The notes under the pieces were generated by a model. That model ran no database searches, was not told the origin of the DNA, and worked only from the letters and a program-made list of their open reading frames with translations. Both the position numbers and the translations under genes were made by a program. A stretch of 64,000 nucleotides of DNA from Alphaproteobacteria bacterium (GTDB lineage: Bacteria; Pseudomonadota; Alphaproteobacteria; CALKHQ01), in contig CBDDFZ010000001.1 of the NCBI GenBank assembly GCA_965227515.1, positions 1,632,001 through 1,696,000 on the forward strand. The letters are read 5' to 3'. How positions within the stretch are numbered: the first letter of the stretch is position 1; each line of letters starts with the position of its first letter. Below are positions 22,239-26,437 of the stretch, piece by piece.

Positions 22239-23075
22239 ATGCCTTCCTTTGAACGCTCAACGCTGGTCGCCAAATTCCAGCAGATGGTCCGCGACGGCCA
22301 GCCGATCATCGGCGGCGGCGCCGGCACCGGACTCTCCGCCAAGTGCGAGGAGGCCGGCGGCATCGACCTCATCGTCATCTACAATTCCGGGCGTTACCGC
22401 ATGGCCGGGCGCGGCTCGCTGGCCGGCATGATGGCCTATGGCAACGCCAACGACATCGTGGTCGAGATGGCGCGCGAGGTGCTGCCGGTCGTCAACTCGA
22501 CACCGGTGCTGGCCGGCGTCAACGGCACCGACCCGTTCTGCCTGTTCGACGATTTCCTGCCGCGGCTGAAGGCGATGGGCTTCGCCGGCGTGCAGAACTT
22601 CCCCACCGTCGGGCTGATCGACGGCCAGTTCCGCGCCAATCTGGAAGAGACCGGCATGGGCTACGGGCCGGAAGTGGAGATGATCGCGAAGGCGCACGGG
22701 CTGGACATGCTGACCACGCCCTACGTGTTCAACACGGACGAGGCGCGGCTGATGACCGAGGCCGGGGCCGACATCATCGTCGCCCACATGGGGCTGACGA
22801 CGGGCGGGGCCATCGGCGCGGAGACCGCGCTGACGCTGGACGACTGCGTGCCGGTGATCAACGACATCATCGCCGCGGCGCGCGAGGTGCGCGACGACGT
22901 GATCGTGCTCTGCCACGGCGGGCCGATCGCGATGCCGGACGATGCCGCCCATATCCTCAGCCACTGTCCCGGCTGCCACGGCTTCTACGGCGCCAGCAGC
23001 ATGGAGCGGCTGCCGACAGAGACCGCGCTGATCGAGCAGACGAAGCGGTTCAAGGCACTCACCCGCGGCGAGTGA
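22239..23075 (+). CDS. phosphoenolpyruvate hydrolase family / TIM-barrel signal transduction protein
   Basis: [37 protein letters not shown] and GASSMERLP motifs. Confidence 0.9.
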
Positions 23076-23087
23076 GATCGGTGCCCT

Positions 23088-23175
23088 GTAGCCCGGATGG
23101 AGTGGAGCGCAATCCGGGTTTCGTTGTGACAACAACATCGATTGCCCCGGATTACGCTGGCGCTTCATCCGGGCT
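23088..23175. repeat. GTAG-type REP doublet interrupted by IS110 at its terminal CT|AC
   Basis: GTAGCCCGGATGGAG...AATCCGGG ... CCCGGATT...CATCCGGGCT. The missing AC resumes at 24596. Confidence 0.85.
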
Positions 23176-23199
23176 TCTGTAACGGGCCATTGTTGGTCA

Positions 23200-23400
23200 A
23201 TCCCTTTTTCGTCGTCCCGGCGCCTGGGTCATGCTTCTGTACGGGGTCGGCGCAGGGCCGCCGCCAAGATGGATATGCGAGGATCGGTCGGTCCAATCTA
23301 CGGAAGCGTGCTCTCATGCGAGGCGACATCCCGGATGGCGGCCTGACCTGATCCATCGTCCCGGCGCGGGACGGCGCTCGACGGGCCGGTGTCGGTGCCC
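23200..23400 (-). ncRNA. putative bridge RNA / seekRNA of the IS1111-type element (ends approximate)
   Basis: Guide-like matches to target (23330-37, 23298-303) and donor (23266-72, 23234-41) inside two predicted stem-closed loops. Confidence 0.8.
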
Positions 23401-23439
23401 GTCGAAGCTCGTGTGTCGGTTCTCCTTATGCCGCGGCCA

Positions 23440-24483
23440 TCATGCTGTCGCCATCGCCGGGCGCACCGGTCCGGCATGGTTGAACGGTGTGCCGTCAACC
23501 CACATCCGGTGCATGATCACGGCGAGCCGGCGCGCCAGCGCGACCTTCGCCTTCCTCATGCCGGCTCGCCTGGCCAGCTTCATCGCCCAGCTCTTCAGCC
23601 AGCCGCCCTCGATCGGCCGGGTCAGAACCACGTGCGCCGCCTCATAGAGGGCCGAGCGCACATCGGCGTCCCCCACCTTCGAGATCCGCCCCGTCATCTC
23701 GCTCTCGCCCGACTGGCGCTTGGTCGGCGTCAGGCCGAAGTGCGCACCCACCAGGCGCGACGAGGCAAACCGCCCGGGGTCGTCCACTCCCGACAAGTAG
23801 GTCAGTCCGACAATGCTCCCCACGCCCGGCACCGTCATCAGCAGGCGAGCGCGATCGTCCGCCTGCGATGCCGCTCGGACCTGCCGGTCCAGCGCCGTGA
23901 ACGATAGCAACAGGCCATCGCGTGCCGACAGCAGCGCCCCCGCCACCGCCTCCAGTACCGGATGCCCCGCCACAAGCTCCGAAATACGTGTCGAAAAGCT
24001 GCGCCTGGTGGTGTGCCCTACCTTCAGCCCGAAGTTCCGCAGCTGACCACGAAGGTGCATCTCAAGATCGTGCAGCTTCGCGCGGAGCTGGTCGCGACCC
24101 TTCAAAAGGGCCCGCATCTCCTGGGCCGCCAAAGACTTGCAGTGAACCGGACGAAACCAGCCCACACGCATCAGCTGAGCAATCCCGCGTGCGTCCGAGC
24201 GGTCCGACTTCACCGGCATCGTCGAAAGCGCTCGCGCAACATGACGCGTCTCCAGCAACTCAACCGAAAGACCGCCCTCGCTACATCCCCGCACAAGCCA
24301 TTGCGACAACGGCCCCGCCTCAAGACCAATCCGCTCAACCGAAATCCCCAAAGACCCAAACCACAACAACAAACCCGCCGGCGTGCTCGCAATACGAGCC
24401 TCGCAGACAATCCCGCCCGCGCCGTCAACAACGCATACCGATGACCATTCCAAAGAAACGTCAATCCCGGCATAGTAGTTCAT
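23440..24483 (-). CDS. IS110-family DEDD recombinase/transposase
   Basis: GIDVS, GLEAG and KSDRSDA acidic residues, TVPGVG, GLTP..QSG (catalytic Ser) and KAKVALARRL. RBS GAGGAG. Frame intact. Confidence 0.95.
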   Translation of the reverse strand: MNYYAGIDVSLEWSSVCVVDGAGGIVCEARIASTPAGLLLWFGSLGISVERIGLEAGPLSQWLVRGCSEGGLSVELLETRHVARALSTMPVKSDRSDARGIAQLMRVGWFRPVHCKSLAAQEMRALLKGRDQLRAKLHDLEMHLRGQLRNFGLKVGHTTRRSFSTRISELVAGHPVLEAVAGALLSARDGLLLSFTALDRQVRAASQADDRARLLMTVPGVGSIVGLTYLSGVDDPGRFASSRLVGAHFGLTPTKRQSGESEMTGRISKVGDADVRSALYEAAHVVLTRPIEGGWLKSWAMKLARRAGMRKAKVALARRLAVIMHRMWVDGTPFNHAGPVRPAMATA

Positions 24484-24649
24484 GGTCGTCTCTCCTCGAT
24501 GTCTTGGAGCGGCAAACCCGACTCCGTGTATGACACCGACATCTTGAGGGACGACCACTCATGCACGCCACCAAACAAGGGCCGTTAGCCCATCTACGGG
24601 TCCGTGGCATCGCGCCCGCCGACGCACGAGTACGAGGGAAGCAACAGCA

Positions 24650-25096
24650 ATGACCAAGGTCTACATCAGCAACGTGATCGATCTGCCGGTCGACAAGGTT
24701 TGGGCGCTGGCCCGTGATTTCAACGGCCACGACAGGTGGCACCCGATCATTGCCGAGAGCCACGTCGAGGGCGGAAAGCCGAGCGACCAGGTCGGTTGCG
24801 TGCGCAACTTCAAGCTCGCCGACGGCACGCCCTTGCGCGAGCAGCTGCTGTCGTTCAGCGACCGCGAGCACAGCTTCACTTACAACATCCTGGAATCGCC
24901 GCTGCCGCTGGAGAACTACGTCGCGACGTTCCGTTGCACGGCCGTGACCGAGGGCGACCGCACATTCGTTGAGTGGATGGCGGAGTTCGACACCGCGGCC
25001 GAGAACGAGGCGACCCTGGTCGAGCAGGTCGGCCGCAACACCTTCGCCGCCGGTATCGTCGCACTCGCCGAGGCCCTGGGCGCGAAGGTGGGGTAA
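24650..25096 (+). CDS. SRPBCC (START/polyketide cyclase) family protein
   Basis: VDKVWALARDF..WHP..VGCVR..LREQLL..FTYNIL..TFVEW pattern. Confidence 0.85.
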   Translation: MTKVYISNVIDLPVDKVWALARDFNGHDRWHPIIAESHVEGGKPSDQVGCVRNFKLADGTPLREQLLSFSDREHSFTYNILESPLPLENYVATFRCTAVTEGDRTFVEWMAEFDTAAENEATLVEQVGRNTFAAGIVALAEALGAKVG

Positions 25097-25168: not shown

Positions 25169-26437
25169 TGTATGGCCCGGGGACATGGTTGACAGTTGTT
25201 CGGAGACATAGCTGACACATTGATGGTTGGTTTTTTCTCATATTGTAAGGTCGATGTCAGCGATCTGGGTTGCGCCGAAGAAGATGCTGTAGCGTCCGTC
25301 GTTGCCGCGCGGCCTGATGGCGAGACGCTCGCCGGCGAAGGCGCGTGGCACGGGCCAGAGCCTTCCCTTGAAGCTGACGTAGAACTTGGTTGCCCCGACC
25401 TTGCGGACGATGTCGTCGGGTCCGTATTCGGGCTCGGGTAGGGTGTCGGGCATGGGTCGTGTCGAGGGCCGGTAGCGACTGGCCGGCACGTTCATGTCCA
25501 AGGCCTGGTGCGGCCGCTCGGAGTTGTAGACCGGGCGCCATTCATCGAAGGCCTGTTGCACCTGGGCGAGATCGCGCATGCGTCGCAGCGCGAACACCTC
25601 GGCGTCCAGGGTACGGTGGAAGCGCTCGTTCTTGCCGCGTCCTTGCGGGTGATATGGGCGGGCGTGGATGACCTCGACGCCGAGCTTCAAGAGCCACACC
25701 CTGAGTGGGGTCCACTGCCCCGGCACCCCGCCGCCCCAGGGCGAGCCGTTGTCGAGGTAGAACGCATCGGGCAGGCCGTAGAGCCGGAACGTGCGCGCCA
25801 GCAGCTGCTTGACCGTGGCCGTGCGCTCGTTGTCGCCTGCGTGCAGGCACAACGAGAAGCGCGAGTGATCGTCCAGCACCGTGAGCGGGTGGCACCACAG
25901 GCCGCGGTCGACCTGCACCCGTCCCTTGAAGTCCATCTGCCACAACTGGTTCGGCGCCGGCCGCTCGAAGCGCGTGTAGGCGTGGCCTGTCTGGCGTCGC
26001 GGCGGCACCCGCTCGTGGCGCTGCAAGATCGCATGAACGGTCGATGCCGAAGGCGGGGCGATCCCGTCGCGTTCGAGGCAGCGGGCGATCTTGCGCGCGC
26101 CCCAGGCCGGATGCGCATCGCGCACCGCCAGCACAGCCGCCTCGATCCGCGCCTCCGTGCGGCGCGGGCTGTGGCGCGGCCGACGCGAGCGATCCGCCAA
26201 CCCTTCCCCCGCACAGCCCGCCCGACGCAGCCATTTGTGCCCGGTCTGGCGGCTGATCCCGAACCGCGCTCACGTTCGCGCCATCCAGAGAGGCAAGCAT
26301 CACAAACTCACGCCGTTGATCCACGATCGACACCTCTTGCCAAGGCATGGCCGACTCCAAAATCGGAAGCCAACCACACCAATAAGAGTGTCAACCATGT
26401 CCCCGAACGCCTGTAAGCTATCTCCCCGGGCCGAACA
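25169..26437 (-). mobile_element. IS481-family insertion sequence, 1269 bp
   Basis: TGT...ACA ends; IRs TGTATGGCCCGGGGACATGGTTGACAG / TGTTCGGCCCGGGGAGATAGCTTACAG with inner repeats of the GGRGACATRGYTGACA motif; 5-bp target duplication CCTGT/CTTGT. Confidence 0.9.
25238..26348 (-). pseudogene. IS481 DDE transposase, frameshifted near codon 28
   Basis: MPWQEVSIVDQRREFV..GANVSA switches frame to RFGISRQTGHKW..WQMDFKG..DNGSPW..GKNERFH. Confidence 0.8.

Follow-up and report, generated by a model that had tools for sequence, protein, structure and literature searches.

What brings a mobile element to the same base of the same host repeat time after time, and is the address written in an RNA that the element itself carries? 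This question is raised by a repeat at positions 23176-24595 (minus strand) of the window, by which we mean the whole 64,000-nt stretch of DNA analyzed here (contig CBDDFZ010000001.1, from the alphaproteobacterial assembly GCA_965227515.1). We find that it is very probably an active or recently active insertion sequence (IS) of the IS1111 group, with a bridge RNA (long seekRNA) in its right end. Central to this answer are four short segments of the non-coding region that change, across related elements, in step with the two sides of the target and the two ends of the element.

The element, its ends, and its target

The element is 1420 bp long, and 23174-24593 is an equally valid delimitation owing to a 2-nt core present at both ends. 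On the plus strand, the left junction reads CATCCGGG (23166-23173), CT (23174-23175), and then TCTGTA of the element from 23176, and at the right junction the element finishes with CCCAT-CT (24590-24595) and is followed by ACGG (24596-24599). When the element was searched against its own genome (5.52 Mb, 2 contigs), we recovered 20 full-length copies, aligned exactly over query positions 1-1420, and one copy with an internal deletion. In the recombinase sense, 20/20 copies read nGT-AG-ATGGGCTAACGG...GTTACAGA-AG-CCYGGRTG with identical ends. Because the 20 copies have identical ends and the same flanks, the ends are exact up to the 2-nt core, which lies at 23174-23175 and again at 24594-24595 and reads CT on the plus strand and AG in the transposase sense, with AG at both ends of all 20 copies. 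Joining the flanks of each of the 20 copies gives an uninterrupted start of a host repeat, i.e., insertion is site-specific, with no target duplication beyond the shared core. An earlier interpretation of this DNA, made from the letters alone and referred to below as the sequence-only reading, had stated that excision of 23176-24595 restores the target and that the joined ends give the donor, and both statements are correct on the window sequence. The genome's own uninterrupted repeats served as empty sites for this comparison, no sister genome with the element being found; the element was present in 0/3 genomes of the same family, and 40 genomes besides the window's own gave only three weak partial matches.

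The target is the start of a repetitive extragenic palindromic (REP) sequence. All 20 copies lie between nGT-AG and CCYGGRTG, and the right flank, in the recombinase sense, runs into the hairpin CCCGGAT...ATCCGGG. In the window, this occupied REP is at 23146-23175 (minus strand), with its first two bases (GT in the transposase sense) across the element at 24596-24597. Empty sites, in which GTAG runs straight into CCCGGATG, CCCGGGTG, CCTGGGTG, or CCTGGATG, number 18, 60, 33, and 3 in the genome, respectively (total 114). A full REP hairpin is found at 111 of these 114 empty sites, and the occupied REP of the window is the same unit. The restored site equals an uninterrupted repeat, GTAGCCCGGATG, which is present 18 times in the genome vs. 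1.3 expected from composition, and this bears out the proposal that the element is aimed at a host REP. A free REP with the perfect target GTAGCCCGGATG is found at 23088-23118 (plus strand), 57 bp from the occupied REP and inverted to it, in a pair resembling a bacterial interspersed mosaic element.

The recombinase (transposase) gene lies at 23440-24483 on the minus strand and encodes 347 aa, with an ATG start at 24483 (MNYYAGIDV) and a stop at 23440. The frame is open in 20/20 copies (347 aa in 18, 345 aa in 2), consistent with the intact ortholog that had been supposed. Matches to Pfam PF01548 (residues 5-150, 48.6 bits; cut-off 29) and PF02371 (residues 212-287, 72.8 bits; cut-off 21.3) and to NCBIfam NF033542, "IS110 family RNA-guided transposase" (residues 4-333, 234.8 bits vs. 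a cut-off of 140), mark the predicted product as an IS110-family DEDD recombinase. Its motifs are GIDVS at 6, LEAG at 54, KSDRSDA at 92, and GLTPTKRQSG at 250-259. By their pattern, the first three are putative equivalents of D11, E60, D102, and D105, the N-terminal alignment to the solved chains being weak (4.5 bits). A PDB sequence search with the recombinase gave two hits only, ISCro4 (9t56, E 4.7e-12) and IS621 (8wt6, E 7.8e-11), in both of which it is the C-terminal domain that is aligned; similarity to IS621 is detectable only there, and no IS1111-group structure is among these hits, both of which are orthologues with described bridge RNAs of the IS110 type. S258-G259 of GLTPTKRQSG is aligned opposite the SG of ESGSS in both chains, and S241 is described as the nucleophile of IS621 (Hiraizumi et al. 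2024, PMC11208158).

IS1111 elements are described as being distinguished from IS110 elements by inverted repeats that are subterminal (7-17 bp or more, with short terminal extensions), by a non-coding region that is longer downstream of the gene than upstream, and by the GL-P----S(t)G motif of a 330-350-aa protein (Siddiquee 2024, PMC11187229). The element has a subterminal inverted repeat (I4; right copy at 23180-23197, partner at 24570-24587), 18 nt long and 78% complementary, one arm lying 4 nt and the other 8 nt inside the element's termini. Downstream of the gene, 264 nt (23176-23439) are non-coding vs. 112 nt upstream (24484-24595), and the 347-aa protein has a GL-P----SG motif. With site-specific insertion, all the IS1111 features that could be tested are present, and, together with the NF033542 and Pfam matches, they agree with the IS1111-type recombinase of the sequence-only reading.

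Guide segments and the DNA they match

The minus strand of the 264-nt non-coding region contains, at the positions and in the order previously noted, CATCCGGG (23337-23330), CCGTAG (23303-23298), CCATCTT (23272-23266), and TACAGAAG (23241-23234). Each segment is present once in the region; under a first-order Markov model of the 264 nt, the expected occurrences are 0.017, 0.037, 0.038 (for CCATCT), and 0.001, with a product of 2.5e-8. Written as RNA in the transposase sense, guide 1 (CAUCCGGG, 23330-23337, minus strand) pairs with CCCGGATG, the REP arm beside the right end. Guide 2 (CCGU-AG, 23298-23303, minus strand) is identical to the left flank plus core; before AG, the left flank is GT in 20/20 copies and CGT in 15/20. 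Guide 3 (CCAUCU, then U; 23266-23272, minus strand) is the complement of the core and of the bases that open the left end (AG-ATGG), and guide 4 (UACAGA-AG, 23234-23241, minus strand) has the same sequence as the final bases of the right end together with the core.

With the core read as CT, as on the plus strand of the window, these segments are, in order, the left target guide (LTG), the right target guide (RTG) with the core, the left donor guide (LDG), and the right donor guide (RDG) with the core, which is the layout that had been recognized and which is correct in that frame. In this CT frame, segment 1 has the sequence of the left target on the top strand and hence pairs with the bottom strand, and segment 2 is the complement of the core and the right target. 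The same assignment is described for IS621: on the left of the target, the LTG is paired to the bottom strand, and on the right, the RTG is paired to the top strand (Hiraizumi et al. 2024, PMC11208158). Viewed in the recombinase sense, with an AG core, the top-strand match is 5' of the bottom-strand match, as is described for IS1111 elements, whose order is called reversed relative to IS110 (Siddiquee 2024, PMC11187229). The two descriptions are one layout viewed from either strand.

We then compared these segments with flanks and ends in relatives. A scan of one genome per species identified 75 homolog loci (numbered with the prefix L below), mostly in uncultured or named Alphaproteobacteria, the best being 68% identical at the protein level and the best plasmid-borne one 67.8% identical. 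Element ends were set independently of the guides, by a conserved left-end pattern and its reverse complement downstream, and were obtained for 38 of 51 examined loci; this subterminal-repeat rule gave no ends for L023, L041, L042, L045, L053-L055, L073, L074, L076, L078, L081, and L088. A generic search for the best inverted repeat between upstream and downstream regions was dropped because it was too noisy. The AG core is found at both ends in 35/38 of these elements, the exceptions being L039 (AC), L070 (CG), and L066 (AG only behind an atypical end). At the right junction of L070 (~2798), CG stands in place of AG, though its guide 4 still reads AUAGA-AG; this may be a core variant or a junction change after insertion.

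For the alignment, we took the final 245 nt of 32 elements, from 29 loci and from the 3 subtypes of the window's own genome, and excluded the near-identical L032-L034, L037, L038, L047-L049, and L067. Dropping L058, L065, L066, and L039, which MAFFT had misaligned, left 28 elements in 17 independent groups. The RNA of L036 was paired with the flank of L037, since L036 has, as its right flank, a second RNA module in tandem. Using one element per group (17), we scored each guide against its own partner and against shuffled partners in four fixed column windows, with 20000 permutations. The score of guide 1 against the right flank is 80, vs. 40.5 for shuffled partners (sd 5.8; 0/20000 as high), and that of guide 2 against the left flank is 57 vs. 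14.5 (0/20000). Guide 3 against the left end scores 75 vs. 60.7 (59/20000), and guide 4 against the right end scores 91 vs. 67.3 (0/20000). The covariation with flanks and ends that the sequence-only reading had named as its check is therefore found for all four segments.

Individual relatives illustrate these scores. Guide 1 and right flank change together, as in CAUGCGGG with CCCGCATG, AAACCGCU with AGCGGTTT, and CAUGUCCG with CGGACATG. With wobble allowed and no anchoring, at least 7 nt of pairing with the own right flank is found in 19/28 elements, vs. 75/720 cross-group pairs. Guide 4 follows the right end: it reads AGCGA-AG where the end is ...TTAGCGA (L056, L082), AGAGA-AG where the end is ...TTAGAGA (the L046 group), and AUAGA-AG in L070. 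Guide 3 follows the left end, with GGCAU opposite ATGCC ends in L040 and L071; it is the weakest of the four because element ends are conserved. In one metagenome-assembled genome, guide 1 of L028 pairs 5 nt with its own flank, and the guide of its sister L027 pairs 8 nt with the L028 flank; L028 was either guided in trans by the RNA of the sister copy or its guide drifted after insertion.

Could the RNA guide only the target, with segments 3 and 4 serving a structural or protein-binding role and the donor ends being recognized by the protein through the subterminal repeats? The short seekRNAs that co-purified with the ISEc11, ISPa11, and ISKpn4 recombinases are 82-96 nt and are described by their target matches (PMC11187229), the long IS1111 subterminal repeats could be protein sites, and segment 3, which has the weakest permutation support, is complementary to a conserved internal motif. 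We nevertheless consider this unlikely, since segment 4 tracks every right-end variant (ACAGA, AGAGA, AGCGA, and AUAGA), segment 3 tracks the ATGCC ends of L040 and L071 whereas the internal motif does not, and donor-binding nucleotides are described in a multiloop for many IS1111 orthologues (Durrant 2024, PMC11208160). The internal complementarity (I5; 16 nt, 81%) is between the region of guide 3, at 23259-23274, and the conserved GGGACGAUGGAU at 23351-23366, before the target-loop stem. Such alternative pairing within the RNA could mask the donor guide. By eye, we saw no covariation for this pairing, and the conserved GAUGG motif before the target stem does not track the left end.

Guide and target have also diverged together within the window's own genome. 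The 20 copies form three subtypes: 13 copies (subtype A) with guide 1 CAUCCGGG, 6 with CAUCCAGG, and one 90%-identical copy also with CAUCCAGG. The CAUCCGGG copies are inserted in CCCGGATG (9 copies), CCCGGGTG (2), and CCTGGGTG (2), and the 7 CAUCCAGG copies are inserted in CCTGGGTG (6) or, for the 90%-identical copy, in CCTGGATG, which is a perfect match. The G-to-A change in guide 1 thereby tracks a C-to-T change in the target REPs (guide variant vs. target class, Fisher p = 4.6e-4). The perfect-match REP class makes up 27/134 sites, yet it received 9/13 subtype-A insertions (binomial 1.8e-4). It is possible, and we suggest it only tentatively, that three sub-lineages, one base apart in guide 1, have divided the host REP subfamilies among them, with only wobble mismatches tolerated, as in a natural reprogramming experiment. 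A second one-base guide divergence is seen in the metagenome-assembled genome that contains both L024 and L025, with AAUCCGCC in GGCGGATT and AACCCGCC in GGCGGGTT. The 7 CAUCCAGG copies (subtypes B and C; e.g., L014 and L020) have, in addition, an insertion of 9 nt, CAAAGACGA, immediately behind the recombinase stop codon, and they show several substitutions within the 60 nt that open the non-coding region, ahead of the RNA core.

The same copies speak to whether the family is real but this lineage silent, its copies being recent relics whose RNA is no longer made or used. One copy is broken and the integrated copy showed no promoter-like site, as such a history would have it. We regard it as improbable all the same: none of the 20 frames is disrupted, and among the 13 subtype-A copies, 12 have an RNA region that is 100% identical and one has a region at 99.6%. 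Moreover, the three diverging subtypes each lie in a REP variant that fits their own guide, which implies transposition after guide divergence, and the adjoining perfect target is still free, so sites are not saturated. The broken copy corresponds to loci L021 and L022 (G000:C1:998355-999179 in the coordinates of the genome), and its two pieces overlap by ~15 bases in the genome.

The covariation also makes it very unlikely that the target is chosen by the protein alone or by similarity between end and target DNA, with the four matches due to chance or to a captured REP fragment. The palindromic nature of the REP target would suit such a mechanism, as would the REP-like character of the first segment, and protein recognition of REPs was discussed before RNA guides were known (Tobes and Pareja 2006, PMC1525189). 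However, the joint chance expectation of the four matches is only ~2.5e-8. The same alignment positions change with unrelated, non-REP targets, e.g., CAUGUCCG/CGGACATG and AAACCGCU/AGCGGTTT, and within one genome the REP subfamily used shifts with a single-base change of the guide.

A conserved RNA fold in the recombinase sense

The guides are embedded in a conserved fold. A structure alignment (A1) was made of 25 of the 28 elements, L061, L062, and L070 being excluded for a misaligned target loop. RNAalifold predicts 22 consensus pairs on these 25 sequences, 15 of them with compensatory changes, and places the guides in unpaired columns and the donor guides in a three-way junction. Consensus pairs are formed in 92.6% of cells, vs. 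78.7% in shuffles (0/500 as high) and 26-51% with the partners slid.

The predicted bridge or seek RNA core, at 23213-23380 on the minus strand (G000:C1:1655213-1655380), consists of a closing stem, a target-binding loop, and a donor-binding multiloop. The long-range closing stem has its 5' strand at 23360-23366 and its partner at 23221-23227 (helices 1 and 2: 6 pairs, 3 changed on both sides) and is also present in the single-sequence fold. The stem that closes the target loop has its 5' strand at 23339-23353 and its partner at 23282-23295 (helix 3: 11 pairs, 8 changed on both sides, 90.5% of cells paired). Between guides 3 and 4 lies the hairpin GGCGGC...GCGCCGAC at 23245-23262 (helix 4: 5 pairs, 4 changed on both sides, 100% paired). 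The core is preceded by a 5' stem-loop at 23379-23404 (CGACGGGC...GCCCGUCG, minus strand) in the single-sequence fold, and, by eye, relatives have a hairpin of different sequence at the same place. Two of the three stems drawn in the sequence-only reading, the outer GGATC-GGTC/GACC-GATCC and CGGCG/CGCCG, are recovered by RNAalifold with compensatory changes. The third, the inner CTC/GAG stem, is not in the consensus, because the hairpin varies in length and is poorly aligned; relatives have longer hairpins at this place.

A covariance model (R1) built for this structure scores 133.1 bits on the RNA core of the window and matches 64/75 homolog loci (22 of which are seed loci), always downstream of the gene. 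In the window's own genome it matches only the 20 copies and the broken copy, whose remnant still scores 50.7 bits. All 20 copies carry the RNA within the element, and neither BLAST nor model R1 found orphan RNA copies in this genome. In one relative, a second whole RNA module follows in tandem past the right end (L036:2590-3015, two model matches), which recalls the separately mobile ssr9 module of ISPpu9. At the opposite end, the left ends of L024, L025, L029, and L031-L034 are 160-189 nt long vs. the usual 111-124 nt; these longer left ends carry an extra GC-rich palindromic stretch of ~50-70 nt that resembles a small inserted repeat, and L023 is similar, its left end being undefined.

The RNA lies in the recombinase sense. 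Every imperfect guide-target pair is U:G or G:T in that sense and would be A:C on the other strand, and structural pairs are G:U in 14/25 and 21/25 sequences at two positions. All covariance-model matches in relatives (66/66) are on the recombinase strand. A natural G:T guide-target pair is also described in the IS621 complex (Hiraizumi et al. 2024, PMC11208158). That the functional RNA instead comes from the opposite strand, antisense to the recombinase gene, would be compatible with the perfect matches, which cannot reveal the strand since there is one guide per DNA strand, but is highly improbable because 10/20 insertions would then need A:C mismatches in place of U:G or G:T wobbles, G:U pairs dominate two structural positions, and the model matches lie on the recombinase strand without exception.

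Features outside the RNA core offer hints about expression and strand exchange. TTGACC at 23195-23200 (minus strand) is a candidate -35 box, from its sequence, for a promoter formed at the circle junction. TTGAC starts 25 nt from the right end in 11/17 group representatives, its place being taken by TTGCGC in L056. If the spacer is 17 nt, the -10 hexamer would be GAAGAT at the joined ends, and it reads GAAGCC in the copy as integrated. ISEc11 is known to have a junction promoter, and one is described for the IS621 circle (Durrant 2024, PMC11208160; Hiraizumi et al. 2024, PMC11208158). Upstream of the gene, a hairpin in the 5' untranslated region (UTR), at 24482-24558 on the minus strand, would enclose the ribosome-binding site of the recombinase; the fold of 24475-24595 has -48.6 kcal/mol and a z-score of -2.71, with 3/200 shuffles as stable. 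By eye, relatives have a like 5'-UTR arrangement with a different sequence, and a structured 5' UTR that limits translation is described for ISPpu9 (Pares-Guillen et al. 2025, PMC12288879). The base after guide 4 and core equals the first base of the target arm in 11/17 groups (246/20000 permutations as high), and the bases after guide 2 and core track, by eye, the start of the left end (AU/AT mostly, CU/CT in L060, C/C in L061 and L070). These are hints that the post-core bases resemble the 2-nt handshake guides of IS621. We rejected AUUGG after guide 2 as a whole handshake guide, as RNAalifold pairs its UGG with the CCG that closes the target loop; the first two post-core bases remain candidates.

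Proposed mechanism and known relatives

We propose that the element has two products: an IS110-family recombinase of the DEDD/Ser type and, from the region that follows its gene and in the same sense, a structured RNA of ~170-190 nt that would act as a bridge RNA (long seekRNA). Two segments of its internal loop would pair with both strands of the target, the 5' end of the host REP (nCGT-AG-CCCGGATG in the transposase sense), and two segments flanking the multiloop hairpin would pair with both strands of the joined ends (...TACAGA-AG-ATGGG...). The RNA-bound recombinase would then join the circular element and the REP, and strand exchange at the shared AG/CT core would give precise insertion with no duplication beyond the core. 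For transcription, binding of the RNA by the recombinase, a circle with a junction promoter, and the chemistry of strand exchange, this proposal draws on homology with IS621, ISEc11, ISPa11, and ISKpn4.

A number of observations weigh against this proposal. Guide 1 fits its own flank poorly (score 3-6, wobble allowed) in 9/28 elements (L028, L026, L071, L046, L052, L057, L059, L061, and L070). Guide 3, and also guide 4, rests on few independent changes, and the complementarity of guide 3 to the conserved internal motif means that its conservation could be partly structural. The column windows of the guide test were picked by eye after the alignment had been viewed, and the subterminal-repeat rule obtained ends for only 38/51 loci. 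A single-sequence fold of the 270-nt region shows the same stems with a z-score of -1.12, and 28/200 shuffles are as stable; we have not counted stability as evidence because this fold is indistinguishable from shuffles. Rfam 15 has no match at E up to 1 on either strand of window 22800-25000, a result that concerns the models of that release and does not show that the region makes no RNA. Finally, the candidate -10 box of the junction, GAAGAT, matches only 3/6 consensus positions, and a search for a sigma-70-like promoter in the integrated element found none.

The arrangement that we propose is in keeping with what has been described for this branch of the family. Bridge RNAs were predicted for 93.0% of the IS1111 elements in ISfinder (Durrant 2024, PMC11208160), and the seekRNAs of four IS1111 elements are described as essential and programmable (Siddiquee 2024, PMC11187229). 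As described in the latter work, ISEc11, ISPa11, ISKpn4, and ISPst6 share with our element a protein of 330-350 aa with GL-P----S(t)G, subterminal inverted repeats, a long downstream non-coding region, and an RNA segment complementary to the top strand 5' of one complementary to the bottom strand; ISPa11 also has REPs as targets. In contrast to these four, our element, which is known from sequence alone, has a different target, and its donor-matching segments have also been traced and co-vary. It is from their descriptions that we set them apart, the nearest relatives that we found being the 68% identical alphaproteobacterial elements. For ISAzs32, ISCARN28, and ISPa11, the predicted bridge RNA is likewise in the right end, with its donor-binding nucleotides in a multiloop (Durrant 2024).

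IS621, as described (PMC11208160, PMC11208158, PDB 8wt6), has in common with our element a DEDD and Ser recombinase, a CT core and a REP target (both of which the sequence-only reading had named correctly), and a junction promoter (a candidate here). Its guides are also alike, with the LTG on the bottom strand at the left and the RTG on the top strand at the right, the LDG and RDG likewise on the donor, a short RTG spanning the core, and a natural G:T wobble. It differs in that its RNA is upstream, in the left end, in an element described without long subterminal repeats. A simple internal loop forms the donor loop of IS621; in our element, a three-way junction takes its place, with the donor segments on either side of a hairpin, and gene and RNA point the opposite way relative to the CT core.

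Insertion into REPs by the IS110 family, including ISRm19 in an alphaproteobacterium, was described in 2006 (Tobes and Pareja, PMC1525189). ISRm19, ISPpu9, ISPpu10, and ISPa11 are all described as having their copies at one fixed position in REPs (PMC1525189, PMC12288879), as our element does, and with ISRm19 it shares this habit in an alphaproteobacterium. ISPpu9 also has AG at both ends in the transposase sense and a structured 5' UTR; unlike our element, it is assigned to the IS110 group and has a downstream RNA, Ssr9, that is described as a dispensable and separately mobile module. What is new here is the element itself (we found no relative above 68% protein identity, and published IS1111 sets may hold closer ones), its target, and the one-base guide divergence that tracks REP subfamilies.

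In the window, the insertion is flanked on one side by a PEP-hydrolase-like gene and on the other by a Polyketide_cyc2 gene. At 25238-26200 (minus strand), 640 bp from the element, a 320-aa frame has predicted HTH_32 and rve integrase-core domains and by these is part of a second, unrelated transposable element.

Bridge recombinases are under development as genome-editing tools, and mechanistic work has mostly concerned the IS110 branch (IS621, ISCro4). The present element leaves knowledge of the IS1111/bridge-RNA family itself unchanged, and it is a clean, apparently very active example of the IS1111 branch, with 20 intact copies, four readable guides, a defined target, and one-base sub-lineages. 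Its copies, guides, and sub-lineages make it a convenient candidate for studying mismatch rules, the multiloop donor module, and the role of the subterminal repeats. The element also accounts for a family of 20 repeats in the host genome, where REPs serve as landing pads. If the sub-lineages do represent a natural reprogramming experiment, they would give rules of mismatch tolerance and guide evolution for the IS1111 branch.

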